Assembly: GCF_026210795.1 (NCBI RefSeq)
Contig: NC_089435.1
Coordinates: 3,844,001 to 3,908,000, forward strand
DNA: 64,000 nucleotides
Direction: 5' to 3'
Origin: Rhizophagus irregularis
Lineage: Eukaryota
The number at the start of each line of letters is the position of its first letter. Position 1 is the stretch's first letter. The translations under genes were made by a program, and so were the position numbers. Below the pieces are notes generated by a model, which was not told where the DNA came from, searched no databases, and worked only from the letters and a program-made list of their open reading frames with translations. Below, piece by piece: positions 2,174-57,359 of the stretch.

Positions 2174-5100
2174 ATGGCTTCTGGAGCGACAAAAGCGGCA
2201 GCTAACATTGGTATGATAGTTGCTAAACGGCCCGAAAAGCCAGGTAGTGCTGGCAAAGTCGTTGAATTAAAGACCAACTTTATAGCAGTGTCTACTGAGG
2301 TAAATAGAATCAGTAAATATTTTATAAACTTTACATAGTGAAAAATTAAGTATTCGAATTACTTTTAATAGTTTAAATATCCGAAAGTGCACTATTATTC
2401 TTTTGAAGTTTCTGATGCGAAAAAGAAAAAAGCTGGAAGAAAGGACTCTCAGAAAGTGTTCGAGCAAATGAAAAAAAATCAAAAATTCGGTGCAAAGGCT
2501 TTACCGGTTTTCGACGGTGGGCAAGTTTATTCAATATCACAGCTTGATATAGGGCATAGAAAAGAAACAAGGAGCCATTCGGTAACATTGGAGATATCGA
2601 TTATATTTGATTATTCAATTAAGCAATAATACACTATAAATTAACTTTGTTAATGTTACGATTTAAGGTAAAAATTCCCGTGGATGCTGATGGTTCAGGA
2701 CGTGAAAAGGACTTAAAGGTTGAAGTTAAATATCAAGGAGAAATAGATTTGAGTCCTATCGGAGATTATGTTAAAGAGAAATCTACTAGTGCTTGGGATG
2801 GGAATATTCAAAGTAGTTTGACTGTCTTAAATGCTTTTGCAAATAATAAAGTCCGATTATCGTTTTTATCTGTGGGAAGAAAGGCGATATTTCCGCCGCC
2901 TCGTGATAATAGACCAATTTTTTTGCCCGGTGGTATCGAAATGAAACAGGGGTTCTATCAATCAGTAAGACCTGGATGGGGTAAATTTTTTTTTAAATTT
3001 TTTATATTTAAAGTTAACTTAAAGAAACATTGATTTCACATATTGTTAAAACTTTCGCAGGAAGGCTTACAATAAATGTGGACATATGTGCTACCACTTT
3101 TTATCCTGCGGGTCCTATAATTGATCTCATACCAAAGATTATCAAAACCAAATTTGACAGGCATGAAAAAACGAGAGATGAATTACGTAGAGGCTTGGAT
3201 AGGAGAGAAATTGATACTCTTAATAGATTTTTCAGAGGTGTCATGATTTTTGTAACTCACAGATCAGACAACCGTAAACCAAAACATAAAGTGTCTTATC
3301 TAGATTCTCAACCAGCTGATCAAGCTAAATTCAAACAAGGCAATAAAGAGATTACAATTGCTCAATATTTCAAAGAAACCTACAAACAAACCTTGCAATT
3401 TGGACGATTACCATGTATTGTTGTAATTAAACCAGACAAGACAAAAGTGTTTTTTCCTTTAGAAGTGTGCGAGATATGTCCTGGTATATTTGTATAAATA
3501 CATATTTTTTTTTGGCTTATAATAATTTTTCTTTGAAGTGAGAAAATAATTACTAATAATTACAATTTTTGTAGGACAAAGATACGAAGATAAACTTTCT
3601 GATGATGCCCGAAGGGAAATGGTTCAAAAAACTGCGATCAAACCGTGGGAAAGATTTGATCGTATCGAAACAGCTATCAAAGATATTTTTCGACATCAAA
3701 GAGACGAAAATTTGCGCTCTATTGGGATGAATGTAGACCCAGAGTTTATTAAGGTCAAAGGTAATTGTCAGAATGAATGATACAAGGTCTTGTTTTTTTT
3801 TTAACTTTTCAAACTCGACATTATAATATTAAGGTCGCGTCATTCAACCACCAAGATTAACTAATGGTACAGAAATAGTCCCGGATGGAGGACGTTGGGA
3901 TTTGAGAAAATTCATTAAAGTAAAAATTTATAACATTGAAATAATAGTAAATTTATTACTTATTTTATTAAAATTTATAATTTATATGAAATTTTTATTT
4001 ATTTTTAGTGTCCTAGGCTTCATAATTGGTCAGTAATTGTATTTGAAAACAGGAATTATGCTCCTCTAGAAATGGTCAAAAATGCTATTAGACAATTAGT
4101 CAGTTCTTTAAGTGAAAGAGGGATGGTAAGCATAACGAAAAGAAGTTGTCAAATATTTTTAAATTTAAAATTTTATCGTTTTATATTTATTTATACATAC
4201 GACACCTCTGTGTATATATATATATAGGACGTCTATCCAGATCCACCAATAGAATATGGTAACCCACAAGGCGGTTACGATAAAGTAAATTTTCTTTTTT
4301 TCTCACTTTTTTTTTATTTATATATAATTCATGAATTACTTTTTTTTCAATTTAGTCGCTATTACTTGCTGCTCAAAAAGCCAGGATAACGCGTGATAGG
4401 CCCGCACAACTCATTATTTGTGTAATTCAGAAAAAGGTCTTAGGTGCATCTGGTATTCATGCTATAATAAAACGTATTTGTGGTACTCAACTTGGTGTAA
4501 TTTCCCAATGCATTGTTGCCAACAACATGAAAGGCCAAAACCCTAGTCGGTGGAGGCAAATATGTGGTAACATTTCTTTGAAAATTAATGGAAAATTAGG
4601 TGGTAAAAATTGTGTTTTAGCTGACAGGGAACTTAATTTTGGAACGAACAAACCGGTACTTTAATATATTATCTCTATCTTAATCCTTTGTTCATAGTTT
4701 ATATTAATTTTGTGTTTATAATTGTTTCCTATAAGTATATGGTATTCGGTGCTGATGTTTTTCATCCTGGTCGTGAAGAAAAGGGACGGCCAAGTGTAGC
4801 TGCAGTTTGTGCATCAGTAGACAAGACAGTTACAAGATATGTTGGCCGACACAGTATGAATCAAAAAATAAAAAATGAAATTATCGAGAATCTCGAAGGC
4901 ATGGCAGTAGAATTATTAAATCAATTTCAACGAGAAAATAATATACTACCTTTCCAAATTGTGTTCTACCGTGATGGTGTTGCTGAAGGTCAATTTCAAC
5001 ATGTCGTCCAAAAAGAAGTAGAAGCACTAAAACGTGCTTTCAGTCGAGTTTATGGCGAAAAGGGTGAAAAAGGGCAAAAACCACAATTAACGTTTATTAT

Positions 5101-5792
5101 TGTGCAAAAACGTCATCATGCACGGTAGGTTACATTTTCTTACAACATATTTCATGGCTATTTCTATGATTTATAAATTTTACACATTTTATCTATAGGT
5201 TTATGCCTGTTCAGAGAGGAGACTCTGATAGAAGCGGTAATTGTAGACCTGGTACAATTGTGGATACTGAAATTGTGGTACCTCAAGAATTCGACTTTTG
5301 TAAATAACCAATCATTCATTTTTATTCTATAGTTATATGTATAACAACAGCACTTATGTTTAATATGTACGAATTGCATTCTATTTTAATATAGATTTAC
5401 AGTCCCACGCAAGTCCTCTTGGAACGGCTCGTCCTACGCATTATCATGTGTTATTAAATGAAGCTAATTTTCCTGTTGATGCTATACAGACCTTAACATA
5501 CAAATTATGTCATTTATCTGCCAGGTAATATATATCATTTAAGCTTATGAATAACAAAGTAAAAACTTATCATTTGCATTTAAATTTCAGATGTAATCTT
5601 GCCATATCTCATGTGACTCCGGTCCACTATGCTCATCATATTGCGAACCAAGCAAAACATTTCGTTTCATGGGATGGTTCTGGCAGTGGAAGATCAGGTA
5701 GTTCAGGTGGTCGTGGAGGTGATACTGTTCCAAATACCACCAGATGCGAGAAAATGAAATCCGGGATTGAAAACGAGATGTTTTTTGTTTAG
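2174..5792 (+). CDS. AGO: Argonaute (N-L1-PAZ-L2-MID-PIWI), 13 exons, catalytic tetrad DEDH present
   Basis: Exons ~2174-2299, 2372-2581, 2668-2980, 3061-3483, 3575-3760, 3834-3919, 4009-4125, 4228-4284, 4356-4655, 4736-5124, 5199-5299, 5395-5524 and 5591-5792 join in frame. Motifs: GFYQSVRP, PLEVC..PGQRY, LKINGKLGG, FGADVFHP, NEIIENL, FYRDGVAEGQF, VQKRHHAR, GTARPTHY, HYAHH and C-terminal MFFV. Confidence 0.96.
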
Positions 5793-6252: not shown

Positions 6253-10094
<3,842 letters not shown>

Positions 10095-17100: not shown

Positions 17101-18271
17101 TATCCGTTTATTAATTATTTATTTCTTTTGGTAAATTTCTCTTTCATTATCATGTGAAAATAGCTTTTGAAAACAATCTGAAAATGGTCAAGTCAATTAA
17201 AAAAACTTGTTAATAAAAAATCTTATGATAAATGTATTCGAACGCGTAAATCACCTCTTAATTGGGGAACTCGATAACAATTTAAGATTAGAAGGAAAGT
17301 TGATTCCAAAGTGGTTTTTAAAATCATATGAAATGATTTTTTTTGTGTCCGTTATGTTATAAATCAATTTAAGGATTAGGGAGCTTTTTTTTTTCTTTTT
17401 ATTAAAGTACTTTACTGCGTATTATATTATTTTTATTATTTGTATGGAAAAAGGCGGGTAAATAATTTGTCATTTGTATTACAAACATAATTTTATTCAT
17501 AACATTTCTGCAATCCTATGACCTTATTACTTTGTTCTCCAGAATAAGTTCAAAACAACTTTTTAATTTTTTTTTCCAGTATCTCTCCACTCAAAATGTT
17601 TTGAAAAGGTCTTGATTTATTAAAAGAAATTTCAATATTCAAAAGACAAATACGGTGAAATGGCTGCAAAAGTAATTTTTTAAATTGCCGCTGGAGTATG
17701 ATTGTCATCTGAAAATGTAATTTTGATTCCGATTTTTCGGTTAGTTTGCAATTTTTTTTTTCTATTTCAAGTAAAACATAACAGTAAAAGCATAAGAAAA
17801 AAAAAACCATTAATCAAAAAAAAGAATATTTCCTTAATACACGATTGAATTCGCATCACTCCTATGTGTTTCATATTGGAATATCAAATCACAATTATAC
17901 AATGTTTCTTCTTATCTTATTAAATAAAGGTGATATGTTGACCTATTAGTCACACGATTTCAATCGTCACACAATAGTTAACCCACATAAAAAAAAAAGT
18001 TTAAATATTTCTACTCGAGATCTTCCATTCGTGTATATATATAAAGAATCAGAAATGATGAGTCGCAAAAAAAGTTGAAATTTCAATTTTTTTTTCTTTT
18101 TAAAAAAAAAAATAAAAAAAATAAAAAAAATTGAAAATAACTAAAAAAAAAAAAAACTAAAAAACCCTCCAAAAAAGACCAAAAAAAGTATCACGATTGA
18201 AAAAAAAATTTTTTTTTTGAATAATAATTCGTTCTCGAATAAAAAAAAAGAAAAACTTTTCACTCATAATA

Positions 18272-19677
18272 ATGGCTCCAACAAAAACAATTAATGTTCA
18301 CTTAGCAAGGGCTAACCAAGTCATTGACGTTGTTAGGCAATTGCCTTATGACCCGACTTATAAATCCGAAGACGTCGTTCACATTTCTCTTACTATGGCA
18401 CCAAAAGCTAGAATAGAAATTGCTTCTATAGCAGGAATAATTCAATATTCTTGTGACTTGGTTATGTCAAAAACAATTCATGACGTTATATTCGACTTTT
18501 CAAAAGTTAAACTACCTTTCACTTGGCCGGCAAAGAAAACTATTCGTGATATCCTGACTTTGAAACCAAAAGACCCAGTAGCGATTGAATTAGTTAGTAA
18601 AGACTGTCGTTTGACAGTTTTCAAAAAAAATGACCCTAAACGCCGTGATGAATGGTATGACCATATCAAGAACTGGAGAAAAGATGTACCTCAACGTTTC
18701 CACTTAATGTTGAATGAATTGGTTGAAAATGTATCAGCTCATGCTCAACTTGAAGAATCGCGTTTTGTCTTTACGGTCGGTTTATTATTCAGTACAAAAA
18801 AGGTATGTACTTATAATCAACTTAAATTTATTTCACATGCTTATTGAATATAATCATTTTGACATTGTTTTCGTTTTGTTTTTAGCAACTTTTATACTGC
18901 ATCGCAGATTGTGGTGTAGGCCTTAAAGGATCACTTAATCACGCAATCGTTTCCGAAGCTAAACAAGTTTCAACACGTGCTTGTGCATTAAATTTAACTC
19001 GCCCTCAATTCACGTCAAAAGGAATTCAACGTGGTCATCAAGGTGTCGGACTTTTCATCACTTCAGAATTATCGCAAATGAACCAAGGTTACCTCGAAAT
19101 TATTTCTGGAACACAGGAATATGAACAAAGTGGTAAGTAAAAAGAATATTGATGATATAATATATATTATTATTAATATTTTTAATAACAAATTATTTAT
19201 AAAATTAAAATACTTTTTCTTTATTCTGTGTAAATAGACAATACAGTCATGCGTATACGTGGTGTTGCAGAATGGAGAGGGACAATGGTTCATGGAGCAA
19301 TTAATCTCGATAAGGAATTTAATTATCGTCAAGCAATGAGATTATTTTCTGATCCTTCCAAGCTCTCTAAGGACCGTTTCTTGGTTGCTCATCTTCACTT
19401 GAATGTATATGGAGAACGAACCTTAAGAACGAGAGAACTTTGTGAAGAAATAATTCGGGACCTTGAACTTTCTGTTGAACGTTCACCAAAAATTATATTA
19501 GATTTCAGCGATATTGACGAGATCAGTCAGGCCTTCCGAGGTTTCTTACGACAATTCGTTGTAAATAATAAACATGTAAAAATTATGATTATGGTTCCTC
19601 CAAATGCAGACGAAGATTTGAAAGAAGATTTACAAGAATTAGTCGAGCTTGCTGCTCAAAATTTAGATGATGATTAG
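18272..19677 (+). CDS. GHKL/HATPase_c ATP-binding domain fused to a C-terminal STAS-like (DUF4325-type) domain; 405 aa, 3 exons
   Basis: Exons 18272-18802, 18886-19132 and 19238-19677 (531+247+440=1218 nt, in frame, GT-AG introns). N-box LNELVENVSAHA, G1 IADCGVG, G2 RGHQGVGLF, G3 WRGT. The C-terminal LRTRELCEEI...KIILDFSDIDEISQAF resembles STAS/DUF4325. Confidence 0.85.
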
Positions 19678-20569
19678 ATGAGATTTTTTTTTTATTAGAT
19701 AAATATATATACATTATAAAAAAAAATTATCATTAATAATTTTCTTTTCTCTTTGTATAATTTGTATAATTTTCAAAAAAAAAAAAGAAAGAAAAATAGA
19801 CTAGAACTTTTTAGTAGATAATAGATATTGATTATTTCTTTTTAAAAAAAAGGCGGCGTAATGAATGCGCGTGGTTATAGAAAAATTTTTTTGGGATTAT
19901 TATTTCATTAGATTTCTTTTTCGTAATTGTATCACATTTAAAAAAAAAAATTCAATATACATTTAACTCTTTAAAAAAAGCTTCATTAAAATTTTCTGTT
20001 TTCAAAAAAAAAAATTTATTTTTATACATATTCGATTCAAACTTTTTTGTGCCTTGGGCGTTTGAACATATGTCCATTAAAGTTTCAAACACTTTGCTGT
20101 TACGTCTGAAATTACAGAATAAATTTTAAAACTACCAAAATTAAAAATATTCTTCAATAAAAATCACTTTAACAAACCATCCAAGAAAAATTTTATATAT
20201 AAAAAAAAACCAAAAATTTTTCTGCTAAATTTTAATGATATATAACCAAGTATACAAATATATAATATATATAAAAGAAATAAAATAATTTTTTTTTTTG
20301 TTGATAAAAAATAATTACATACAGAAAATATATATATATATAAAAATTTTCAAAATATAAAAGTCAATAAATTTTTTGATATAAAAAATAAAAATAGGAA
20401 ATAAAAAATAAAAAGATATACAGAGAAAAAAAAATATGTATATATGTTATGTATATGTATATATATAAGAATTCAGTAATATAATATATCCCAAATATAA
20501 TAATATAATAAAATATGTGATGGTTTATATATAAAAACAAAAAAATATGTAATATAAAAATAAACTACA

Positions 20570-26138: not shown

Positions 26139-27504
26139 AACTTGATCATCATATAAGGCAAAATTATTGTTCCCCTTATTAAGAGAGTAGTACTTCTTTA
26201 ATTACAATAGATACAATTATACTATATGCATATTTAAATATAGACTTGACAATAATTATTTACTTAACAATGTCCCCCCTATTTTTGTAATCAGTTAAGA
26301 CTTTTTAAGTCGATCTACTAAATAAAAATAAATCAAAGATTTAATCTTTCATAATAAATTGCTTATGTAATAATGTCAAAATAAATAAATTGAATAAAAT
26401 TGATAAACTCCTCTTTCGTGTGGAATTAGTGAATTTCTTATTATAGATATTCGTGCAACATGTAATTAAAATAATTTCCATATTTGGATAAAAAAAAGAT
26501 TTTGTCGCATATTTGTTTGTTTATTAAAACTGGAACATTTAGAAACAACTCCACACAACTCCTGAAATTAGTTTATGTGACAAATTTGGTTATTTAATAA
26601 TTTTATTGTTAGAACTCGTCGTTGTTTCATTAAATTAATTATACAAATTCAAAACAATATATTTTCTTTGTCACATTATGATTGGGAGTGAAGTGTAACG
26701 TGTGAATATATTTTTTCCACCTTTTTTTTGTGTAATATTCCGAACGAGCGTACTCAAACAAATGGTTTTTCACATCCTGTTCCTTGTTTGTTTAAGGTCG
26801 CATAGCACGTTTTATTTGACAAAAGTTTCAGACCTAAATTTAACTCTTTTCTTATCACCTTTAATTACAAATTACTAAAATAAGTATTTGCACAATGAAT
26901 TGAAAACAACGAATTTCCTGGGTTTCACACGCATGGGTCGATTAAAAACAGGGAACAAATAGAATACATACATAAATTTATGCAATGTAATATTTGAAAA
27001 GACTATCTACATATTATTCTATTTGTGCACTTGATATTGTTTTCTTAACTGAAATTGTCTTTGTAAACATGTAATAAAGTAATGATCTACACGAAACTAA
27101 TTTGTGCGAATAAGATGATTTCTTGCAAACGCCCGGGAATGATGAAACTTGATGAAAAACAAGGGGTGATGTATTAAGTGTTAATTCTTTATTGAAGAAA
27201 ATAACGTCTTTACTGTAAGACAAATCAAAAAAATTTTCTATAAATATGGCTTGATTTTATCGTAAGATGTTTCTTCATCCAAAAATAATACATTTCATAA
27301 GATCAATATCCCTCAGGAGGGCTCTATTGTTTTATATACAAAGTTTGAAAAAAAAAAATACACATACTATAATTCTTCCTTCTAGCAGGCTAGAACTTCT
27401 TGTTTTTTAAATATAATATAACTTCGGATTTAGATTTTCATTTTCGTTTTATTTATCTATCAGTCTTTTCTACCTTTTTTTTTTTAATTTACTAAATCCT
27501 AATA

Positions 27505-28665
27505 ATGAAGTTCTCTTCTGCTATTTTCACAATTGTCGCTACATTTATCGCTTCCGTGTCATCGCACACTACAATGTCATTTCCTCCAACTAGGGGACAT
27601 CCATTAAATAAAAATGCAGCTGTCCAAGACTTTGAATGTATAATGGCACCATTAAATGGTGGATCGGGATGTGCACCTAAAAAATTTCCATGTGGTGGAT
27701 ATCCAAAAGATAAAAAAATCGTTACAACTTTCAAAGCAGGAGAAGTTTTTGAAGTTAAATTTTTTAATCAAAACTTCCCTAAATTAAAAGATGAAGATAA
27801 ACAAAAAGATCAAGCAAGACATAATGGTGGTTTATGTGAATTTTCTTTATCTTATGATGGTGGTAAAACTTATACCGTTATTGCCTCTTATAAAAAAACT
27901 TGTCCTGACATTTTCTTTGAAGGTTGGAAAGTTAAAATTCCTGAAAATGCTCCTTCTTGTGATAGTCCCGGAAATTGTATCTTTTCTTGGAGTTGGATTA
28001 ATGCTGTTGGAAATCGAGAATTTTATCAAAATTGTGCTGATGTTAAAATTGAGGGAAATGCCACCGAACCTTTACCTATTATTGATATTACAAGAGCAAA
28101 TTTACCTCCTCTTTTCAAAAAGATTTTAACTCCCGAAGGTGATGATTTAAATAGTGGTAATGCTGTAGGTTCTGGTCCAAGAAAAGAAGATGTTCAAGCT
28201 AATTTGGCTTTAAAGATTGGTAATGGCAATAATGACAATAAAAAACCTCCACAAAATGATGATAAACAAGATGGTGATGATACACAAGACGACGATAATA
28301 AAAGCCCTCCACAGGATGATGACAATGATAACAAAAGTCCTCCACAGGAAGATGATAACGATAATAATAAACCTCCGCAAAATGATGATGATGGAAATAA
28401 CGATGATAACAATGACAATGAAAATGACAATAACAATGACGATGACAATGACAAAAATGACAATGACAATGACAATGATAATGAAGACGACAATAATCAA
28501 GATATTCCATGTAGTGAAAATGGAACGATGGTTTGTGGCAAAGAAGGTGGTGCTGAATTTCTTACTTGTGATAATGGTAAATTAGTTTCAAGATCTTGTC
28601 CTGGAATTTTAGTCTGTACACAAAATGGTAAATCAATCTTTTGTGGTTATCCAAAAAGAAGATAA
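27505..28665 (+). CDS. Secreted lytic polysaccharide monooxygenase-like protein (AA11-like), D/N-rich linker, C-terminal Cys-rich chitin-binding (CBM19-like) module
   Basis: The signal peptide ends ...ASVSS|H, giving an N-terminal His. Motifs HNGGLCEFSLSYDGG and WSWINAVGNREFYQNCAD; C-terminal CSENGTMVC...FLTCDNGKLVSRSCPGILVC. Confidence 0.82.
   Translation: MKFSSAIFTIVATFIASVSSHTTMSFPPTRGHPLNKNAAVQDFECIMAPLNGGSGCAPKKFPCGGYPKDKKIVTTFKAGEVFEVKFFNQNFPKLKDEDKQKDQARHNGGLCEFSLSYDGGKTYTVIASYKKTCPDIFFEGWKVKIPENAPSCDSPGNCIFSWSWINAVGNREFYQNCADVKIEGNATEPLPIIDITRANLPPLFKKILTPEGDDLNSGNAVGSGPRKEDVQANLALKIGNGNNDNKKPPQNDDKQDGDDTQDDDNKSPPQDDDNDNKSPPQEDDNDNNKPPQNDDDGNNDDNNDNENDNNNDDDNDKNDNDNDNDNEDDNNQDIPCSENGTMVCGKEGGAEFLTCDNGKLVSRSCPGILVCTQNGKSIFCGYPKRR
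28225..28500 (+). repeat. Coding tandem repeat (KPPQNDD/KSPPQDDD units and a GAC/AAT microsatellite) in the LPMO linker
   Basis: Four PPQ(N/D/E)DD units, then aatgacaatgac runs. Confidence 0.8.
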
Positions 28666-32953: not shown

Positions 32954-35900
32954 TTACCTTTCAAACACTTCATTCTCTTTATTAGCATTATCCAATTTTT
33001 CCTTACAAGTTTTGCTATTATGTCCCTTTTGTTTACACAATTTACATGTGTATTGAGTTTTAGTATTAGATAACTCTAAAGTATTTTTCATTCTCTTGTT
33101 TGATTTAGGACGACCTTTTGGCCTTCTTTCAACAGGATTTCGAATATTCATGATATTATCACTTTCGCCGTTGTTATTACTGTTACTAACACCACCATTA
33201 CTATTATCAACAACAATTCTTGGCTGTAATTTTTTTTGAATTGACAGAAAAACCTCACAAAGTTCTCGGTAAGTATCCTCATTGTTGTTTTCAATTACAT
33301 CAACCATTACTTTTCTTCCTAAACCCCAAAGTTCTCCAAACTTACGTTTTTTTGATATAGATTTAGTTATTTCAGTATTTATTGCCGAAGCTCCAACTTG
33401 AATAGCAGATCCATTTGAATTCAAAAATTGTGTTGGCAGAGAATGCGTCTTTAATGCCGACATTTTCATTGAAGAAATGGCAACAAATTCTTTATTTGAT
33501 ATATCAGTCCCTTGAAGTATATCTTTATACCAACGCTGGTTTACCAAACCAATGTGAAATCTAGCAGTAGACGTAAGAGTCATTACACGGTAAAAATGGC
33601 GACATGGATAACCATGAGTCTTGTTGATCATACACGTGCAGAGAAAGGTACCATTATTCAAAAGACATACAAAGTGGGATGTCTTTTGGCTTGTTAAATA
33701 TACAACCTCCCATACTTCAAGAATCAATGAGGTATCTTCTAAAAATAAACTTATTTGTACTTGTGGGCAATCAAATAGGTTATCAATACATTGATTTGAC
33801 TCGTCAAGTATCTAAGTAGGAGTTAATAAATTATTTTTTAAAAATTATTGCCGTTAGAAAGCAAATTAAGCTAAAATTAATAGCGTAAGTCTTACCATTT
33901 CCTTAGAATGCAAAATTTCAAGCTCAATTTCCACAGCATGATAATAAAGACTTAGTTCCATTTGTTCCTCCTGCTTCTTCATAATATTTGGCATTACAAA
34001 TTCATTCAGCTGCTGCGCTACTGGTCCAAAAATAGATGTTGATACATTTTGAGGTCTGATTTGAGGTATAGTTTGATGCCAATTTATGAATTCGCAATAG
34101 TCAACTTCTTCTTGATATCTCTCTTCTAATGCATCAAATAATTCACATAATGAAAGGTTTGAATTTCCAAAAAGCCGTTTTAATACTGAATTTTCACCTT
34201 CATTGCGAGAAGTTGTTTGTGCACCAGCAGTAAAATATTTGCTAGTAAAAGCTCGTGCCCATGATTGAAAATTACATCCTAAAGACCTTATCAAATAATT
34301 TTTAGCTTGTGGGTAATTCTGTAGTAATATCTCCCACCTTTTATTGAATGAACAAATACATAAATTAATTACAATATACTTTCTATTAAAATCAATAAAC
34401 AAATGAACAATTAAATTTATTTAATTTCAAAGCACAATAAACAAAATTCTACAATAGATGATATACTGTAAAACAATGGAAGAATTTGAATAGACTATGA
34501 TAAAAAAATAATGGAGTCTAATGAAACAATGATAGAGTCTAGTGATTACAACAAAAAAATTAATGATGGAGTCTAATTAAAAAATGACAAAGTCTAATGA
34601 TTACAATGAAAAGGTTAATGGAATTACAATAAAAAAACAATGGTAGGAATGGCAAAATTGTAAGTACAATAGAAAATTTGTAAAACAATTTAACACAATA
34701 AGTATACCTTTCGTTAAACTGTTTTTCTGTTAAACTGTTTCTTGTCATGTAAAAGTCCTTCATAAAATTATCAAAATTAGATCCAAGCTTCCCCTTTAAT
34801 TGCTTTGGCAAGTTTTGGCCTATATGCCAAATACAATGCATATGAAAAGTATCAGAAAATAGTGTTGCAACAGCACCACTAACTGCTGGATCACTATCTG
34901 TAACAAAAACTTTCGGCGATATACCGGTAGCCTCTTTTACACATTGAAAAACCCATTCATATGAGAATTGTGTCTCATCATCAACAATTGCCTGAGCTAC
35001 AATTCGTGTTTTCAAATTATTATCAGGTGTAACAAAGATGGATAATGGTCGATTATAACGGTTAGTTTTACAAGTATTATCATGCATTATCACATCATGA
35101 TAACGTAACCATAATATTTGTTGTTCTGGACTCATCCAAAAAAGATGAGTTAATGAAGAAGTAATAGGATCTAATTTCATTGAGACTACCCATCGAGGAT
35201 CTTCTATTTTTTTTTCGTGGAGTCTTTTTAGCAAGATTCCCGCATCTGCTTCACCTGGTGTTGATTCACGACGAAATTTACTAATAGCATTATAAAGATC
35301 TGGTCTATGTATTCTAATTTTAAATTTTTCTCTAATAATTCGATATTGTATAGTTGCATCTGCCTTAGCAACAACTGTTAAAAAGCGAATTTCTTCCATA
35401 ATCTCATCTGATAATTTTCGTAATGTAGGGACAAATTTAATTGCTGATGGATGAAGCTCATGACCGACATGTTGATCATGTAAAGTTGTGACCTCAAGAC
35501 ATCCTTTACTTTTTTTTGCCCAAATATTTACTCTCCATGGACATTCAACTCGGCAAGATGAAGTTTGTCTTTTCGATGATTTGGACTTAGCTTTTCCAGC
35601 ATGGCGACACAAGTATGTTCGTTTTGTTATTTCTTGTGTTGTTTTATCTACCCTTCCTCCTCCACCAATTCTTACTCCATGGCCTTTGGTAGCAGCGTAT
35701 TTTTTCATAAAATTTGCTACACGATCCCAATTATGAAAGGTCTTGCCAACATAAAGCTTCATAGTATCCTCCTCCTCCTCCTTCTCCTCTTCCTCCTCTT
35801 CCTCCTCTTCCTCCCCTTCGGCAATATCTTCAATTTCATATTCATTATCGGACATGCCATTTAAACTATAGTAACAAAAGGCATAGCTAATATCATTAGA

Positions 35901-36018
35901 TATATTCTAACTACCTAAGAAAATCTCTATTACTTAACCTGTCAGTATCAGAAAATTCTTCCGCACTATCATATTCCAACAAAGCTTCTAATTCGGCGTC
36001 TTGAATGTTTTTTTCCAT
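32954..36018 (-). CDS. FAR1/MULE transposase, apparently uninterrupted after splicing (4 exons)
   Basis: Exons ~36018-35939, 35865-34708, 34337-33896 and 33811-32954. FAR1/WRKY-like zinc finger (CRH..CPW..HVGH); DDE core HDNTCKTN / FVTDSD / CIWH / TTSRNEGEN; SWIM CTC...PCRH; AT-hook KGRPK; CCHC knuckle CKLCKQKGHNSKTC. Confidence 0.88.
34470..34640. repeat. Degenerate ~21-24-bp tandem repeat inside intron 2 of the MULE transposase
   Basis: Units aataatggagtctaatgaaac, aatgatagagtctagtgattac, aatgatggagtctaattaaa and aatgacaaagtctaatgattac. Confidence 0.65.
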
Positions 36019-37008
36019 AATACACAATTGTAAGTTAAAAAACAAAGGTAAAGTGTGTGTAATTAGTTTTAAAAGAAGTAAACAAGCAGTTTATTGTCAA
36101 ATAATCAAGGTAAAATATGTATTTTAGTTAAGAAATACAGGCCATTTATTCTGAATAAACGTGAATAAAACAAACAAGAGTGAAAAAAAAAAATTAGTTA
36201 TTGGTATTTGGTAATACGATGGTCACGCACGTGATTATTATGAATATGTACGCGTGTGATAATATGTGATAACTCGCGATCTATCATATGCATGATGTCA
36301 TAAATATACGTGTAATACAAAATTATATGATTTATTTATAGGGGTCGCCATGGCAACCTGGGTCGCCAGCTACATTTTGCCAAATAATATATTTTTATTT
36401 TTATATTAATATTAATCCTAAAAATGTAATTTTACTACTATTAGATTCATCTTATTGAAATGGTTCCAATGAGCAGCTACAGTGCGATACCTCTATAACC
36501 AACCCAATTTTATAGTCATAATGTGACATTTTCAAAAAAATGTCACATTAGCAAAAAATAATATTTTAAAATTCTAACTGATAATTTTAATAAAGCATAT
36601 CAAGAGCTTTTAAACTTATCGGATTAGATTAAAAAATAATAAATTTTGCTAATGTTACATAAGTTTGAAGTTCAGGTAATTTATTATGATGGGAAAAATT
36701 TAAGAATAAGTAATTTTCATGTAACATAAAAAAAAACAATCATTTGATAGTACTTATTCAAATAAATCATTTTAGCTTATAAACTTACTCATGCTTTATT
36801 AAAAAAATTTTGAAAAAAAATTTAAAAAAAATTTTGGTAGTTTTTATTTATTGCAAATTATATTATGTCTATTTCTCAAAAAGAAATTACAGGAAAACTT
36901 GCTAAAAAAAATATAAATCACATAGAAAAGTTCTTGATGATATACTTAATTAAATTACTTTAAATAATTATAATGAATAATAAATTATATATAAAAAATT
37001 ATGCATAA

Positions 37009-40000
37009 GGCCGCTCCAACAAATAGTTTCGTTTAACATCACATGACATGAAAAAAATAGAGGGGGTGGGAGGTAAAATTTTGTACATATTAAATTTTAA
37101 ACACATATATAAAGTCATGTTATTTTATTAGATGTAATGATTGTAACATTAAGTTTGCGATATTGTATTACAATCGACCACTTGTATCAATACTTAATTT
37201 ATATTATTAACATGTGAACAAATCGTATTTTCTTTTTCTTTTTGCTTTGTTCGATAAACTTTTCTTTTTCTTTCGTGTAGTATCTGTAAATAAAACTGCA
37301 GAACTGACGATACTTTTTTTGGAAATTATATACATCAAATGTTGTATTTGTTTGTAACAGCCTATGAAAATGGCATATCTTTAGTAAAATCAGCAGTGGT
37401 TGGTATTAAAGAATCCGGAAATTTTGAAGATTTATTAAAAGAAGCACTTTCAAATGAACTTTTTTTAGAAGATAAGCTGGTAAAAGTTGATCTTCAATGT
37501 AATGATTCTTCAGCTTGGCATCCTGTATTAAATGGCCTTACCGAAAATTTAGAAGCATGTTTTCAATTGAAGGCGCAGCATGTACGTTTTACAATATCTC
37601 ATAGTATATCAATTCCCGATGAGTTATCTAATGAAGGATCTTCAGCATTTAATTTCATGATGACACAACAACGCCTAAAAAAACTTCCACTACTTTACAA
37701 CTCCCAATTTCGTAATGATTTGCTCTATAATGATTTTTTAAAAATTTTGCAAGAAAGGAAACTGGGATGGCTGAATGATAATCATTTAACTATTGGGCAT
37801 TCTTTTATCTGCAGAGTTACCGATTTAGTATGGTATTTGGATCCTCATCTTGGCAAATTGGAAAAACGCGGCTTGAAACTACCAAAAATTATAGCCAAAC
37901 TTCCTGTATATGCTTCTGAAAGTCATTATAATCTCTATCATGATACTACGAAGCATAAAAAAATTGAAATATCACGAGAAAAACTTGAGTCATTTGTTAA
38001 AGCTTTAATTTTATCTATTCAACAACCTTGGACACGCCTATTACATTGGGAAGAAGTAATTAAAGATATTGATGATCTGATAAAAATAGCTCAAGAATAT
38101 GCCAACTATTTTCAAGGGGTTAATAATAGAATGCGTACTATACATACGAGTCTAGTTCCTGTAAGAAATGGGCGGGATGATATTACAGTTGAGGATATTG
38201 AAGCTGTTGACTTATATCCATCTCAATATGAGTTTTTAGCACAGCTTCTTCGTGAATCCAATGATTATGATCTTCTAAATATAGATCATTTGCTTCCTCC
38301 CAAGCCACAAAATATATATCTCTTTTTTCAAAATATTTGTGCTGATGTATCCTTCACGCTATATCGTTACTATCATGGCAATTGTCTCAATACATTAAAT
38401 TTTGTATGGAAAATTCCTTCTTTGGATAAATGTGACAAGACAAAAGAAGCAAAAAATATTTCTGCAGCATATGATCAAATCCCAATCTATTGTACAAGAC
38501 AAATGCGAAAAAATGTGATAAATAAGGTTTTTTTCTTTTTTTTTTTTGTTTATACTTCAGTTAAAATATTTCTTTTGAAAATATACTAAATATACACCAA
38601 CCTTTTTATAGTATTCTTTAATAGTTAAAGCATCACGCTCAATTCTGCAAGTACTTTATCAAGATTTAACAGGAGATGTATCAACACCAGATAATGAAAT
38701 CAATAAGAAAACACATGAACGGATAAATTGATGCTAGATACCCAAGATCCTGATATTATTATAGATCTTCGTAAGATTATTAATGAAAAAGGCACAAAAT
38801 TTGATGTCTTTTGGAACGAAATGCAAGATTACTTTAATGAGGTAATGATTATTAATTTAAATACTATTTTTGTATTTATATCTTATATAATTTATATCAA
38901 GATCATCTCAAATTTTAAAAAGGTTACGCCTGCAGTGCATGATTGATGACATACCTCAACTTTATATATGCCAATTGCCATCTCAGTTAAGGATCTGGTG
39001 CAAATCATAATTGAACGATTAGAAAATAAATATGGCACCATACCAAATGATATTGAAATACCTTCTACTGAATGGGTGCGATTACAATTTTGGCCAAAAA
39101 CAGAATTTTCAGAAAATCGGTATACAGGCAGGTTTCAAATTCGATATATGATTCAAGCTCGTCAAATACGCAAGTCTCATATTGATTCACATTACTGTTC
39201 TGCACTTTGGAGATATTTACGTGAATTTGCTATTAAATTTAAAGAGTATACAACATTAATTTGTGCTGATGACAAACATAAAGTTCCTATTGGAGAATCA
39301 GTTGCTACTTCAACAGGAGTGAGAAATAAATCAGCATTAACTACTATAGATGGAATACTTAATTCTTGTGATCACAATTTTACAAAATTATCTTTGACCC
39401 CTTTGGCATCTTTATTTGTTGACATTCCAAATAGTATATCAGATTCATTTTACCAGGGTCAAGTATATATAGCATATAAAGATACAATTTTCCAACCAAG
39501 TTCTGCTATACGACATGCAACAGAATTCTATAATAATTATTCTATTCAATATCAAGATAATATTAACAAACCTAAAATTTTACTTTTATATACTGATGGT
39601 GGTCCAGATCATCGATGCACATATGGATCTGTTCAAATATCATTGATAGCCTTGTTTTTAAAAGGTAACTTTGATTTCTTAGCTGCTGTACGAACTGCTC
39701 CTTACCACAGTTGGGCCAATCCAGCTGAACGTATAATGTCAATATTAAATCTTGCTTTGCAAGGTGTTGCTTTAAAGCGAGAAGATATGAGTGGATTATC
39801 AGAACAAGCTTTTGAGAAGCTTAAAACTTTATCTGAAATCCGTGAAGGAGCTAATTCTAATTCACATTTAAAAGAAGAGCTTATTAAATCAATTAAAATT
39901 ACTCAAGAATTCCTTGAAAATCGTACTTCACGACTTTCTTTACATGATTTAAAATTCAAAATCGCTTCTCCTGCCATAGAAACTGAAATTGATTCTTTAT

Positions 40001-41166
40001 TTGAGGTATTTTTTATATTAATATTTGCTTAAATTTATTTTTGTTAATCATTAATATTATAATAGTCTATATTAACAGCTGAAAGTCAGCTTACAATTAA
40101 TGATACAACGCTAGTAGAATTAAGAAAATTTCATAAATTAAAGGAATTTATTGATACGCATTGTCAAATTAGACAATATTCATTTCAGGTATGTCAAATA
40201 GAGTAAAATGCACTTATATATATTTATTGTATTCGAAATTTATCACAAAACTCTAATTTCTGCAGATTAAGAAATGCAATAATAGTGAATGTACTATCTG
40301 TTTACCAGTTGAATTACCAATTGAAGTATTTGATGAATTGCATTTTTTGCCTGATCCTGAACCATCTATTGGTAAGAATTATACAACCTTTTTGCATAAA
40401 GTGCTCAAAATTCTAATTATGTTTTTGGGCGTTTTTATTTTAGCTGATTCTAATCATTATAAGGATTTTTCAAGTATATATGGGACTCAAACATCTGAAA
40501 ACTTTCGTCCAAGTAAAGCAGGACAACTAGAAGCTGATAATTTACCCCAGGGCATTTTCAATAATAATCGTGTTCGCGAATTTATTGAATGTGATTTTTG
40601 TGGAAAAATTCGATGCATTTATAGTATGAGTGCTTTAAAAAAAGAGCAGATATCCACATTACAGCTCAAAATAAATGATAATGATTTTACTTGTGGAATT
40701 GAAGAATGGATGCCACCTTCACATGAGCTGAAAGGTATTGTTTTTATTCGTCAATCTCTTAGCTGTGATTCTCCAATTGAAAGTGGTTATTATTCAAATC
40801 GCCTAAAAAAACCTCCTATTTGTTATTATTGTGGTAAAAATAATTCATTGGTGGAGGCAACTGACGATTTACTTCATGGATATCAATCTGTATATCCACT
40901 TTGTTCTAATTGTCAACTTTTGGGTCATTCTTTTCATACTTGGGGCAAGAAAAAAGTTGGTGAATTAACAAGAAAAAGGAAAAGAGAATAATTTTTGTAT
41001 TATATAATCTTTTAATAAATAATTTGTTAAGTAAAATGATTGTTATTTTATCTTTATTATCGTATTTTTATAAAATCACGTGATATACAAAATGTACATT
41101 TAAATCTGAATTTTTTGAAATAATGAGGGGGGTTGATGTTAAACGAGACTATTTGTTGGAACGGCC
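37009..41166 (+). mobile_element. Zator-like DNA transposon (GG...CC termini, TAA TSD, 33-bp TIR)
   Basis: TIR ggccg(c/t)tccaacaaatagt(t/c)tcgtttaacatca at 37009-37041 and 41134-41166 (2 mismatches). TAA at 37006-37008 and 41167-41169. Termini, TWA TSD and transposase motifs fit Zator. Confidence 0.8.
37339..40991 (+). pseudogene. Zator-like transposase, multi-exon, with two adjacent premature stops
   Basis: Motifs ADDKHKVPIGE, YTDGGPDHR and APYHSWANPAERIMSILN, plus C-terminal Cys clusters. After splicing at 38923 the frame reads VTPAVHD-TGA-TGA-HTSTLYMP (stops at 38944-38949). Confidence 0.8.
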
Positions 41167-53865: not shown

Positions 53866-54235
53866 TGTCGACGCATAAATATTTTTTTGAAATAGATAGA
53901 ATTTTTGATTATGTGAAATTTTTTTTTTTTTTTTTTAAAAAAGAAAAGTTGAAGAATCAAATTTAGGTCAATTGATTCTTTATATACTTTATCGAAATAA
54001 ACTTTTTTATACTTTTCTTATTATTGCACAGCAACGAATATTTGATCAACTGATGTTGATGTATAATCCCATTTAAATTTGATTATACATTTTACTTTTA
54101 TTATTATGTAATATAAATATTTTATATTTAAAAGTGCAAGCAAAAGTATTATAAATTTATTACTGATAATTGACATATTTTATATATAAATATATCTCTT
54201 GTATTTATTAAATTCTCGCTAAAACTTTAATTACA

Positions 54236-57200
54236 ATGGTTCGCAAATCAAAAAAAACTTTTGTAATGACACAGATGACACAGACAAACCTTCGAAAAAA
54301 CAGCGTAAACCGATTTTAGGTACTTTTAAATCACGTTCAAGACAATTTGTGGCATGCAACTGTAATAAATGTAAAGGTCGTAAAGTTGATCCACGTACAA
54401 GAGAGTCGCATATGAGAGAAAGAGAACTACCAATAAGAAGTGAATCTTCTAATATGGCAACGGAAGGGGGAATAAGCCAAATAAATGCTCCATATGATCC
54501 TATAGAACTAGACGAAATAAATATTAATGATGTTGATAGTGATACCGATTTTAATAATAAACAAGTGTTTAGCTTTCTTGTTAAAAATCCAAGAAACCCT
54601 AAACAAAAACAAGCAAGTAGTCATGTTAGTTTTCCATTAGTTGTAACTGAACAGCTCTTGTATAATAGTGAAGAAGAACAAGCCACCAACGAAGATGAAG
54701 ATGTATATTTTAATGAAGATGAAGATGATGATGATGACTTGTTGGGGCAACATGTTAATTTTGATACTCCAGAATATGATGGTGGAATTGAAGGTGCTGA
54801 ATTACCCATTCCAGATATTAATGCAGGATTTACATGGATTGTATATTGGATTTTTAAGTATCAAGAAAGATACCGTCTACCTGATACAGCTATTGATTCC
54901 CTTTTAAAATTTGTTAGATATATACTGGTCTTGGTTGATGAAAATACCTATTCAAAGTTTCCGAAAACTTTGTATATGGCACGTAAATTATTCGGCATTG
55001 GCAATCAATTAATTAAATTTGCAACTCGTAAAAAATGTTGCAAATTATATGCAGTAAAAGATTTGCCGACCGATCAACCTTATCATTGCACATTTCAAGA
55101 TTACCCAAACCACCCAATAAGTAATTTAAGATCTTATTGTAATAATATTATTACAAAGCAAATTCCCACAATCAAGGAATGATGTTTAAACCATCACTTA
55201 TTTTTCCCATTATTAGTATTAAACGAAGATTGCAACAATTATACAATACAAAAGGATTTGAGGAGTCGTGCAGGAAGTGGACCAATCGACCTAACAATGA
55301 AAAAGAATTGGCAGATATCTTTGATGGAAGAATTTGGAAAACTTTTGAAGATCCAAATAATAGCCAATTATTTTTTTGACATGAGGTAGCAGACAGTCAT
55401 TTGGGAATCATGATGAACCTTGATTGGTTCCAACCCTTTGACAATTCTCAATATAGTGTTGGAGTAATATATGGGGTCATATGCAACCTTCCGCGGAGTG
55501 AAAGGTTTAAGGTTTCTAATATAATTACTTTGGCAGTAATTCCTGAACCTAATGAGCCAAAATTGCATTAATTGAATCATTATTTGGCTCCAGTAATTGA
55601 CCAATTTATTGAGTTATAAGAAGGAATTAATCTGTCTAGTACGTATGAAAATCCAGCTGGCAAACATATACGAGCTGCAATTATATGCTGTGCATGTGAT
55701 ATACCAGCTGCAAGAAAACTTTGTGGCCATATATCTGCACGTGTAGCTTGCTACAGATGTCAAAAATTGGCTGATTTTACCATTGTAAACCAGCCAAATT
55801 TCGGAGGTTTTAACAATATGGAACAATGGTTTGTGTCAAGAAATGTTGAAAAAATGAGAAATAGTACAGTTTTATGGAAAAAATGTAAAACTGAAGATGC
55901 ACGAAAGAAACATGTGTCTGAGACATTAGTGCGATGGTCAGAGATGTACCGGCTTCCATATTTTGACCCTGTTCAATTCCTTATTGTTGATCCTATGCAT
56001 TGCTTATTTTTGGGCATTGCTAAATGGATCGTCACCCGATTATGGATTGAGGAGAGACGACTAACATCAGAAAACTTGACTACCATGCAGGAACGAGCCA
56101 ATAGGATGAAGTTACTATCAGATATTGGTAGAATCCCAAGTAAAATAATGATGGGTGAAGGTTTCTCAGGGTTTACAGCTGACCAATGGAAAAATTTTAT
56201 CCTTATATATGCTACTTCTATTACTTGGGATCTACTTAAAAATGATGATAGAAAAATATTAAGTTACTTTGTACGAGCATGCAATATTCTTACATGTCGC
56301 ATTATTTCAAAATCTGGGTTAGAAGAGGCGCATAAATGTCTTTTATCTATGGTAAAATTAGTTGAAAATAGTTATGGACCAGGAAAGATAACGCCAAACA
56401 TGCATTTATGTTTACATATATGTGAATGTGCATTGGACTATGGTCCACTTTATGCATTTTGGTGCTATAGTTTTGAAAGAATGAATGGATTGCTAGGTAA
56501 TTACTTTGATATACTTATAATAAATATTCTGATATTTAACCAGATTTTTTTTACAGGCTCATTACAAAGCAGTAATCAAAACATATAGCCAGCCAATGAA
56601 AACCAACATCTTTCAGAATGTTTGCCTTACATCACTCATAAAGAAAAGGTCGGTAGTCTTGCTCATGATGATTTTGACTTGTTGGAATATTTTGAATTTT
56701 TATCAATGTCAAAGAATGTTAAAGAGAAAGCAGGAATAGGGTCAGAACCTTTTCCAGGAGCATTGCTCAAGCCGAAAAAAGAAGCAAATCTTCCACAAGA
56801 TATATTAAAATTACTGATAGAGTATTACAATAGTGCATATGATAATTACTTTTTCATAAGCTTATCAGATATTCATAACACATTACCAGAAGCAATAGGA
56901 GTTTTACCAAAAGTCACTAAGTTCGGTAGATTAAGAATCGGAGTAGAGGTGATTGGCTCAACATTTTCAGCAAGACATATAAGATCGGTGAATGTACTAT
57001 CTCAATTTATTTTAGATGATAATCATACAACCGATATCTATCCTGGTCAGGTTCAGTTTTTTTTCGAGCATACAATTCACCTACCGGAAGGTTCTAAAAC
57101 TCACTGTTTAGCTTTTGTAAGATGGTACAAGAAAACAGAAAATCGTAAATATCGATTTCATTGTCAAATTGACAATGATGATTTGAATATTTGTAATATT

Positions 57201-57359
57201 GAACTGTGGGAGAATGAGTTTTATGAATTAAGTCAAGATTGTATCATACCTATACACAATATTTTAGGACGATTTGTTGTGGGAAAAATGACAATTGGTA
57301 AAAAAAATCCTAAAAGTTATTTGTCAGTTATCCCTATAAACAGAAAAATACATATATAA
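54236..57359 (+). pseudogene. CACTA/EnSpm (tnp2-family) transposase pseudogene
   Basis: ADIFDGRIWK, NLDWFQPF, ICNLPRSERF, CDIPAARKLCG, DPMHCLFLGIAK, TPNMHLCLH, DYGPLYAFWCYSFERMNG, PGQVQFFFEH..AFVRWY. Frameshift at ~55180 and stops at ~55377, 55569 and 55617. Confidence 0.85.

Follow-up and report, generated by a model that had tools for sequence, protein, structure and literature searches.

An intron-bearing gene of arbuscular mycorrhizal fungi predicted to encode a bacterial-type GHKL protein fused to its own STAS domain

The 64,000-nucleotide stretch of Rhizophagus irregularis DNA analysed here (NCBI RefSeq assembly GCF_026210795.1, contig NC_089435.1, forward-strand positions 3,844,001 to 3,908,000; hereafter the window) contains a three-exon gene for a 405-residue protein (Table 1). 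This gene of arbuscular mycorrhizal fungi (AMF) is expressed and conserved and is older than the last common ancestor of Glomeromycotina. Structure models predict a three-domain fold for its product, in which a STAS-like domain is followed by a GHKL ATP-binding domain and a C-terminal STAS/DUF4325 domain. To our knowledge STAS-GHKL kinases of the anti-sigma type are regarded as prokaryotic, and no eukaryotic example was found in the literature searched, which did not extend to subscription papers. We tentatively propose that the protein works as an ATP-binding switch in one chain, with its C-terminal STAS domain as a pseudo-substrate lid.

Gene structure and expression

Splicing of the two introns leaves a single terminal stop, and the 405-residue reading frame of three exons claimed by the initial annotation, which was made from the letters alone, is thus obtained. 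In a comparison with database proteins the product is the same at every residue as P0001 (R. irregularis RirG_098050/RhiirA5_357600), which carries the UniRef name DUF4325 domain-containing protein. Both introns, for which RNA-seq had been named as the check, are skipped by polyA reads (row X24; Table 1 gives raw counts, with about 24% of the data read). A search of sequencing runs listed no carrier of the gene recorded as RNA, and the evidence for expression comes from these reads. Both joints are carried by contig rows X4 and X12 and neither by X1, so that three of the four rows are spliced when X24 is counted. The motifs quoted earlier are all found, namely ELVENVSAHA at residue 149, DCGVG at 185, GHQGVGL at 227, WRGT at 272 and IILDFSDIDEISQAF at 345. 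The protein does not end at EISQAF as was stated; 46 more residues follow this motif.

Table 1. Coordinates of the gene, its transcript and selected elements of its product, numbered along the window
Feature	Position	Strand	Description and basis
Spliced transcript contig with untranslated regions	18171..20018 (approximate)	+	contig record from row X12
Exon 1	18272..18802	+	residues 1-177: STAS-like domain at the N-terminus, then the beginning of GHKL
Intron 1	18803..18885	+	83 nt, GT-AG, phase 0; 386 spliced reads
Exon 2	18886..19132	+	residues 178-260: G1 box D185-x-G187-x-G189, ATP lid, G2 box G230-x-G232
Intron 2	19133..19237	+	105 nt, GT-AG, phase 1; 203 spliced reads
Exon 3	19238..19677	+	residues 260-405: GHKL end W272-x-G274-T275, linker, C-terminal STAS/DUF4325, stop
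N-terminal alpha/beta domain	18272..18601	+	residues 1-~110; AlphaFold2 model of the domain alone, STAS rows, hhalign
N box E149-x-x-E152-N153-x-x-A156-H157	18716..18742	+	invariant in 23/23
K176-K177, hairpin before G1 box	18797..18802	+	by eye where the CapK/VapK single-stranded DNA lysines sit
C-terminal STAS/DUF4325 domain	19381..19656	+	residues 308-399; STAS fold matches, hhalign to GQAF-type DUF4325
S356-Q357-A358	19525..19533	+	helix-cap Ser, then positions equal to the VapS (+9) and CapS (+10) acceptors

The exons have a GC content of 37%, with 27% at third codon positions (GC3), the two introns have 22% and 11%, and the window lies roughly between 18 and 38%. With this base composition the gene looks like the host's own. 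A Pfam scan of 20 open reading frames (ORFs) of at least 100 residues in the window shows eukaryotic neighbours, including an Argonaute, an MCM protein, a cyclin and an LCAT-like hydrolase. Contamination was considered and rejected on the introns, these neighbours and orthologues concordant with fungal order. A pseudogene was rejected as well, given the spliced reads and the invariant catalytic boxes. A membrane protein is unlikely, with a maximum 19-residue hydropathy of 1.26.

Domain architecture and predicted fold

The full-length AlphaFold2 model has a predicted local distance difference test score (pLDDT) of 91.8 and a predicted template modelling score (pTM) of 0.91. The domain models were compared with PDB entries by VIA, which reports Z, root-mean-square deviation (rmsd) and aligned residues. 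For residues 109-285 the best match is SpoIIAB (1l0o; Z 12.5, rmsd 2.7, 133 aligned), followed by Rv1364c RsbW (Z 10.5), UsfX (10.2) and RsbW (9.7), with BCKDK and PDK2 at Z 7.9 and 7.8. The initial annotation had assigned the kinase-like part to the SpoIIAB/RsbW type of GHKL domain that has no DHp domain, and this assignment is supported. In keeping with it, a Pfam scan of 12 orthologues (E<=0.1) finds no HisKA or receiver family in any of them, and the N-terminal region is alpha/beta in the model and not DHp.

The STAS fold expected for the C-terminus is also recovered, with residues 308-399 matching STAS structures at Z 8.0-8.7 (4qtp, Z 8.7, rmsd 2.0, 84 aligned; 1sbo, Z 8.1; SpoIIAA 1tid_B, Z 8.0). 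This region is acidic, with 12 Lys and Arg and 22 Asp and Glu in residues 305-405. Against PF14213 (DUF4325), P0001 scores 17.8 bits where the gathering cut-off is 23, and only P0016 (23.2) of the 12 orthologues reaches it. An NCBIfam scan of P0001 gives no match.

Residues 1 to about 110 had gone unmentioned in the earlier reading. They form a separate alpha/beta domain, which is basic (17 Lys and Arg, 12 Asp and Glu in residues 1-118) and which, folded alone as residues 1-~95, reaches a pLDDT of 88.7. The order of beta strands and alpha helices agrees with a STAS fold, and about 19 of the top 34 structure matches are STAS by title, but their Z values are 4.2-5.1 and two non-STAS rows stand at the top. 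By hhalign the domain aligns with the N-domain of bacterial STAS-GHKL-DUF4325 proteins of the TPS group (31%, E 5e-4, 94 columns), and with three non-fused groups at 0.1-1.5%. From these models and alignments it is probably STAS-like and of the sensor type present in the bacterial kinases CapK and VapK.

Foldseek with the full model yields mostly GyrB, ParE and topoisomerase GHKL domains, two of them at E<=0.001. The AMF-only profile finds nothing below E 0.015 among PDB sequences; exon 3 alone gives chance syntaxin matches only, and P0322 none. The PADLOC model DrmA matched 20 of 23 family members, with E down to 1.4e-6. The match spans only the GHKL stretch (P0001 residues 143-294 of a 1750-position model), and we read it as generic GHKL similarity.

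ATP-binding boxes and relation to known systems

The Bergerat fold of SpoIIAB/RsbW type has intact N, G1 and G2 boxes by alignment and structure match. The catalytic boxes are invariant in 22-23 of the 23 aligned AMF sequences, the single gap being a partial model. When 4 fungal and 24 bacterial-type sequences are compared, residues E149, N153, H157, D185, G187, G189, G230, G232 and G274 show no variation. The same fold is found in PDK, BCKDK and the fungal hybrid histidine kinases. The AMF protein differs from these in having STAS domains and no helical regulatory domain, HisKA or receiver, and none of them is among its sequence matches. SpoIIAB/SpoIIAA and RsbW/RsbV provide the best GHKL matches and, with SpoIIAA, a close C-terminal one. 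The fungal protein differs in being fused, in its extra N-terminal domain and in the absence of an acceptor Ser at the mapped positions. Also, we know of no sigma factor in a fungal nucleus.

Among characterised proteins, CapK and its relative VapK stand nearest. According to Chambers et al. (EMBO J 2026, PMC13373217), CapK is an HTH-STAS-GHKL kinase (HTH, helix-turn-helix) that is switched on by single-stranded DNA (ssDNA) and phosphorylates CapS at S54, and VapK is modelled to phosphorylate VapS at S48 and thereby release the VapC RNase. The same text places ssDNA contacts at K237/K239 of CapK and K180/K181 of VapK in AlphaFold 3 models, and reports that an aromatic residue, W68 in CapK and F54 in VapK, is needed for activation by ssDNA (PMC13373217). 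The AMF protein shares with CapK/VapK a probable STAS-GHKL layout without DHp, a DUF4325-like STAS domain and, by eye, the lysines of the hairpin that precedes the G1 box, where K176 is conserved in 22/22 and K/R177 in 22/22 ungapped AMF sequences. VapS (PDB 9Z7O) is the top PDB match of a mixed fungal-bacterial profile (E 2.4e-9). The fungal protein differs in that kinase and STAS lie in one chain, in having no Ser/Thr at the mapped acceptor positions, in having neither HTH, winged HTH (wHTH) nor PIN output, and in being encoded by a eukaryotic nuclear gene with introns. No capS (STAS-wHTH) or vapS-vapC gene is adjacent to it among the 20 ORFs scanned in the window. By partner and acceptor features it is therefore a STAS-GHKL variant outside both SpoIIAB/RsbW and CapK/VapK.

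Phospho-acceptor positions of the C-terminal STAS domain

Acceptor positions are numbered relative to the LDF-strand Asp, or the residue equivalent to it, which is D348 in the fungal protein. With a register set by eye and HMM alignment, the acceptor of CapS lies at +10 and that of VapS at +9 (PMC13373217). In the AMF protein +8 is S356, which is invariant in 23/23 and stands directly before the helix that starts at residue 357 in the model. Position +9 is Gln in 21/23 and Lys in 2/23 orthologues, and +10 is Ala in 23/23. Where helix 2 begins, the fused STAS domain thus carries no Ser/Thr acceptor, and among 45 pattern entries the motif is SQA in 42, SKA in 2 and unparsed in one (L002, SQA by eye). 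The initial annotation had proposed phosphorylation of the protein's own STAS Ser in EISQAF. This is not supported, as S356 is at +8 and the mapped acceptors are at +9 and +10.

Residue +8 is Asp in CapS and Ala in VapS by eye. In SpoIIAA we take +8 and +9 to be D57 and S58. The fused bacterial groups carry SSS, TSS or TPS at +8 to +10, Ser/Thr at +8 being the norm, and a plasmid-borne partner STAS described below has TQS, that is, Thr at +8 with a separate Ser at +10. With Gln or Lys and Ala at the mapped acceptor positions and S356 just before the helix, S356 is most simply a helix cap and the C-terminal STAS domain a pseudo-substrate.

Bacterial relatives and origin

A profile search of 1.84 billion representatives gave 319 matches, the best 150 of which are listed. 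After four AMF-type sequences, these follow at E 1e-12 to 1e-5. Pfam on 124 of the best 150 finds HATPase_c in most, an N-terminal STAS domain in some and a C-terminal DUF4325 in 28. In the nearest ESM Atlas clusters, bacteria account for 89-100% of those members that have a record. We judge the relatives to be bacterial from these clusters, from 80 bacterial genome loci of one subgroup and from a Pseudomonas plasmid pair. The bacterial-type architecture and horizontal origin put forward earlier are on this basis probable, and a single acquisition from bacteria is likely. Identity to the bacterial-type relatives is 15-25%, and the full GHKL-linker-DUF4325 region aligns with a bacterial family over 244 columns (hhalign 99%, E 7e-18).

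Of the expected fungal clade nested within bacteria, one part stands: the AMF sequences form one long-branched clade in both the GHKL tree and the full-length tree. The bacterial group nearest to it differs between GHKL and STAS. In the GHKL tree P0141/P0191/P0192 are sister to AMF (SH-like approximate likelihood ratio test 90, long branches), from a quick search in which 13 of 23 AMF rows were thinned out and one fragment below 110 residues was dropped. The N-domain and GHKL resemble STAS-GHKL(-DUF4325) proteins. For the linker and the C-terminal STAS the likeness is to wHTH-GHKL-DUF4325 proteins that bear a GQAFADE motif. The latter part aligns by hhalign at 95% (E 4e-8) with GQAF-type DUF4325 and at 55% and 14% with two Ser-bearing groups. 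Judged from such alignments, the bacterial parent would be either a mosaic or a member of an unsampled lineage.

Scans for closer relatives were negative within their reach. In GTDB genomes 60 stretches matched an AMF pattern and none was confirmed, and viral contigs gave no relative; both scans use exact peptide words and so exclude close relatives only, and they point to no donor, whether endobacterial or of another kind. P0001 and P0155 have no plasmid match and P0145 no viral match.

The GQAF family (loci L005-L084) consists of stand-alone bacterial wHTH-GHKL-DUF4325 genes with at least 5,682 members. Among 120 examined, 103 have GQA, none has Ser/Thr at +9, five have Ser at +10 and one is unparsed, counts that are biased because the set was gathered with a GQAF-derived profile. 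The GHKL boxes are kept (N 105/120, G1 120/120, G2 106/120). An intact GHKL with an acceptor-less STAS therefore appears to be a stable bacterial design. Across 80 loci, every neighbour cluster is confined to 5 or fewer. Of the 123 nearest neighbours with at least 100 residues, 81 were scanned; these are mostly housekeeping genes, with few of defence type. The GQAF proteins are uncharacterised and annotated as ATP-binding, DUF4325 or anti-sigma regulatory factor. They share with the AMF protein the GHKL-linker-STAS alignment, Gln at +9, Ala at +10 and the stand-alone gene; they differ in an N-terminal winged helix in place of the STAS-like domain (hhalign 0.1%) and in Gly at +8 instead of Ser.

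The plasmid pair lies at L085:641-4438 of Pseudomonas plasmid NZ_CP072560.1, where a STAS-GHKL gene is followed by a small STAS gene with a TQSF motif. It adjoins DNA adenine methylase, 8-oxoguanine glycosylase and queC, and is CapK/S-like without wHTH or PIN.

Distribution, age and selection in Glomeromycotina

Searching with exon 1 brought up 23 longer proteins, and with the family profile the number was 33. The sources named for them comprise Rhizophagus, Glomus, Funneliformis, Gigaspora, Cetraspora, Dentiscutata, Racocetra, Diversispora, Acaulospora, Entrophospora, Geosiphon, Ambispora and Paraglomus, genera that we take to represent five orders of Glomeromycotina, and the gene is present in all five sampled. 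No named non-AMF fungus or other eukaryote is among the 23 and 33 matches, apart from one plant-transcriptome record (see below). Identity of the orthologues to the R. irregularis protein is 63-91%, and 131 of the 405 residues never differ among the AMF sequences aligned.

Glomerales (100/100), Diversisporales (98/98), Archaeosporales (100/100) and Paraglomus (99/100) each come out as a group in the rooted full-length tree (38 rows, LG+G4). This grouping by order fits vertical descent. In L003, a genomic locus that is Paraglomus-like and matches the P. brasilianum protein at 99-100% identity, the acceptor of intron 1 sits at the matching position and intron 2 at the matching position and phase. 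As these introns are common to the locus and R. irregularis, they were gained before the radiation of Glomeromycotina, and the gene is ancient, not recent. The subphylum-wide vertical inheritance seen from tree and introns was missing from the earlier reading. Purifying selection, which that reading expected, is supported at the codon level: in 3/3 pairs of the window gene and two intronless metagenome orthologues, the proportion of nonsynonymous differences (pN, 0.24-0.27) is well below that of synonymous differences (pS, 0.88-0.98), the latter being saturated, so that no dN/dS ratio is given.

Also missing was a paper from 2018 in which this gene very probably already figures among transfers from bacteria. 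In Li et al. 2018 (PMC5982333), R. irregularis ESA12330.1 / JGI 184991 appears as a bacterial 'ATPase, DUF4325', a recent and possibly Rhizophagus-specific transfer with 166.6 fragments per kilobase per million (FPKM), at the 97.9th percentile. Species, ATPase plus DUF4325, bacterial best match and high expression agree, and one such ATPase plus DUF4325 gene of R. irregularis is among our search returns. The entry calls the transfer recent and has no architecture or mechanism, whereas the present data place the gene before the last common ancestor of Glomeromycotina. Accession searches led only to this paper and to that of Ciach et al. discussed below, in both cases through ESA12330. The age, architecture, mechanism and CapK link of the gene were not found in the literature searched, with the same scope as above, and the string 'fung' does not occur in the main text of Chambers et al. 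2026 (PMC13373217).

One intronless orthologue (L001:168-1385) is 63% identical, with GC 56% and GC3 73%. In the tree it branches off outside every named AMF sequence, though support for this is weak (81/61); its source may be an unsampled early-diverging fungal lineage, which would shift the transfer earlier. Four records (P0040, P0013, P0048 and P0009) are annotation oddities. P0009 is an 85%-identical plant-transcriptome record labelled Anthurium 'Dedicator of cytokinesis 7', which we infer to be fungal mRNA within that transcriptome. The RefSeq model of strain DAOM 181602 is truncated to 258 residues, and two partial models of Dentiscutata erythropus are without most of the exon 2 region. 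In Diversispora eburnea, model 9351_t (P0049) joins a methyltransferase, a diverged fragment of the AMF GHKL and an AIG1 GTPase, and is perhaps a decayed second copy inside a chimeric gene model.

Proposed mechanism and alternatives

The mechanism that we favour, at somewhat less than an even chance, is an ATP-binding one-chain switch with a pseudo-substrate STAS lid that possibly senses single-stranded nucleic acid. The C-terminal STAS domain would dock on GHKL as a lid that cannot be phosphorylated. A signal would bind a basic groove between N-domain and GHKL and alter nucleotide turnover, and the lid would then move; if CapK/VapK are a guide, the signal is most likely single-stranded nucleic acid. 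Through this movement a fungal partner bound to the surface of STAS would be freed or uncovered, such that partner switching would proceed via conformation and not via phosphorylation of the lid. No output domain is attached, and nothing like the wHTH of CapS or like VapC is attached or adjacent.

In favour of this mechanism are the invariant catalytic boxes, the SpoIIAB-like fold, Gln or Lys and Ala at the mapped acceptor positions, the best match of linker and C-terminal STAS to the GQAF family with its mostly acceptor-less STAS, and the invariant hairpin lysines. Predicted docking of the kinase half with the STAS half scores 0.43, with 0.01 for the best control; the runs agree in at least 96% of contacts and the partner pLDDT is at least 79. 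The mark used is reached by 51/78 solved pairs and 2/108 mismatched pairs, but scores of at most 0.60 at the mark come from 5/78 solved pairs and from all 4 passing mismatches of 180, which makes the support weak. Several points weigh against the favoured mechanism. The docked chains are halves of one protein, and the interface and the position of STAS on the kinase are not seen. The STAS identity of the N-domain is weak (Z<=5.1), and Foldseek with this domain has no match at E<=0.001. The hairpin lysines are not specific, as at least two basic residues occur there in 54 of 87 parsed non-fused relatives. By eye and from the letters only, no evident counterpart of W68/F54 is seen in the two corresponding loops of the fungal N-domain, F83/W85 being conserved elsewhere in it. 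The N-domain and GHKL score better against Ser-bearing groups, although those groups were chosen by the fungal profile, and the GQAF motif counts carry the bias named above. S356 is invariant, and the very high, steady expression, if ESA12330.1 is this gene, would suit a sensor with a housekeeping role no less than a response to damage.

In a different model, GHKL phosphorylates its own STAS domain at S356, either within one chain or between the two chains of a dimer, and the binding of a partner is switched by this phosphorylation. We consider it unlikely. In its favour, the kinase boxes are intact, invariant Ser is kept where the nearest bacterial STAS group has Gly, and the acceptor register already shifts by one residue between VapS and CapS, so +8 is not impossible. 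On the other hand, +8 is a helix cap in the model and holds Asp in CapS, Ala in VapS and, as we take it, Asp57 in SpoIIAA. Ser/Thr is usual there in the fused groups and the TQS plasmid STAS, so capping explains S356, and invariance is unremarkable among so many invariant positions. It is also rather doubtful that the protein is a housekeeping sensor of adenylate (ATP/ADP) or a small ligand, whose STAS lid would be nucleotide-dependent without a link to nucleic acid or immunity. The binding of SpoIIAA by SpoIIAB is ADP-dependent, which counts for such a sensor, as do retention in all five orders sampled, the lack of an evident ssDNA-stacking aromatic, the GQAF relatives amid housekeeping genes with few of defence type among the 81 neighbours scanned, and the expression of ESA12330.1, if this is the gene. 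The probable CapK/VapK layout of N-domain and GHKL, the basic N-domain and the invariant hairpin lysines speak against it, and no metabolic partner is identified.

It appears improbable to us that the protein is a true Ser/Thr kinase whose target is a separate fungal protein, such as a sulfate transporter that bears a STAS domain, and that its own STAS is an autoinhibitory domain or adaptor. The SpoIIAB-type active site would allow it, eukaryotic SLC26/SULTR STAS domains are seen among the structure matches, and CapK phosphorylates, and VapK is modelled to phosphorylate, a separate STAS protein (PMC13373217). However, no separate STAS gene is found among the 20 long ORFs scanned in the window. 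That the gene is no transfer but descends from an old GHKL lineage of eukaryotes which other fungi have lost is very hard to uphold. The AMF branch is long, its donor is not placed, identity to the bacterial-type relatives is low, the origin is read from the best 150 of 319 profile matches, and Ciach et al. dropped ESA12330.1 for low coverage of the homologous region (10.1101/2021.12.02.471044). Against such a lineage stand the composition of the nearest ESM Atlas clusters, the alignment of GHKL-linker-DUF4325 to the bacterial family and the near-exclusive AMF membership of the two sets of matches.

Within the favoured one-chain switch, a more specific scenario is conceivable and in our view on the unlikely side, namely that an AMF ancestor captured an immune sensor of CapK/VapK type and kept it as a sensor of single-stranded nucleic acid or DNA damage, coupled via the pseudo-substrate lid to a fungal output. 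If true, this would be a eukaryotic partner-switching-type sensor in a multinucleate fungus with endobacteria and a heavy transposon load. A copy that entered before the radiation, gained introns and kept 63-91% identity would amount to a signalling component specific to AMF, a lineage for which few innovations in signalling are known. Ready assays (ssDNA activation, Phos-tag, N-box mutant) come with the CapK/VapK work, so that function can be tested in vitro although the fungus is not transformable. The AMF protein also draws attention to one-component GHKL-STAS proteins of bacteria, which number in the thousands, are uncharacterised and are mostly without the usual phospho-acceptor.

Neighbouring genes

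About 13 kb upstream of the gene, at 2623-5125 of the window, lies a multi-exon Argonaute gene with ArgoL1, PAZ and Piwi domains, which is adjoined by an MCM gene on the minus strand (~7100-10000). Pieces of MULE/FAR1 transposase are present at 32957-40029 and 54223-57356, together with several long ORFs without a Pfam match that are probably transposon-derived. The ORF at 27496-28662 has no Pfam match at 1e-3. Its product starts like a signal peptide, with His coming next (…VSSH-TTM…), has a tail of low complexity and may resemble His-brace copper proteins.

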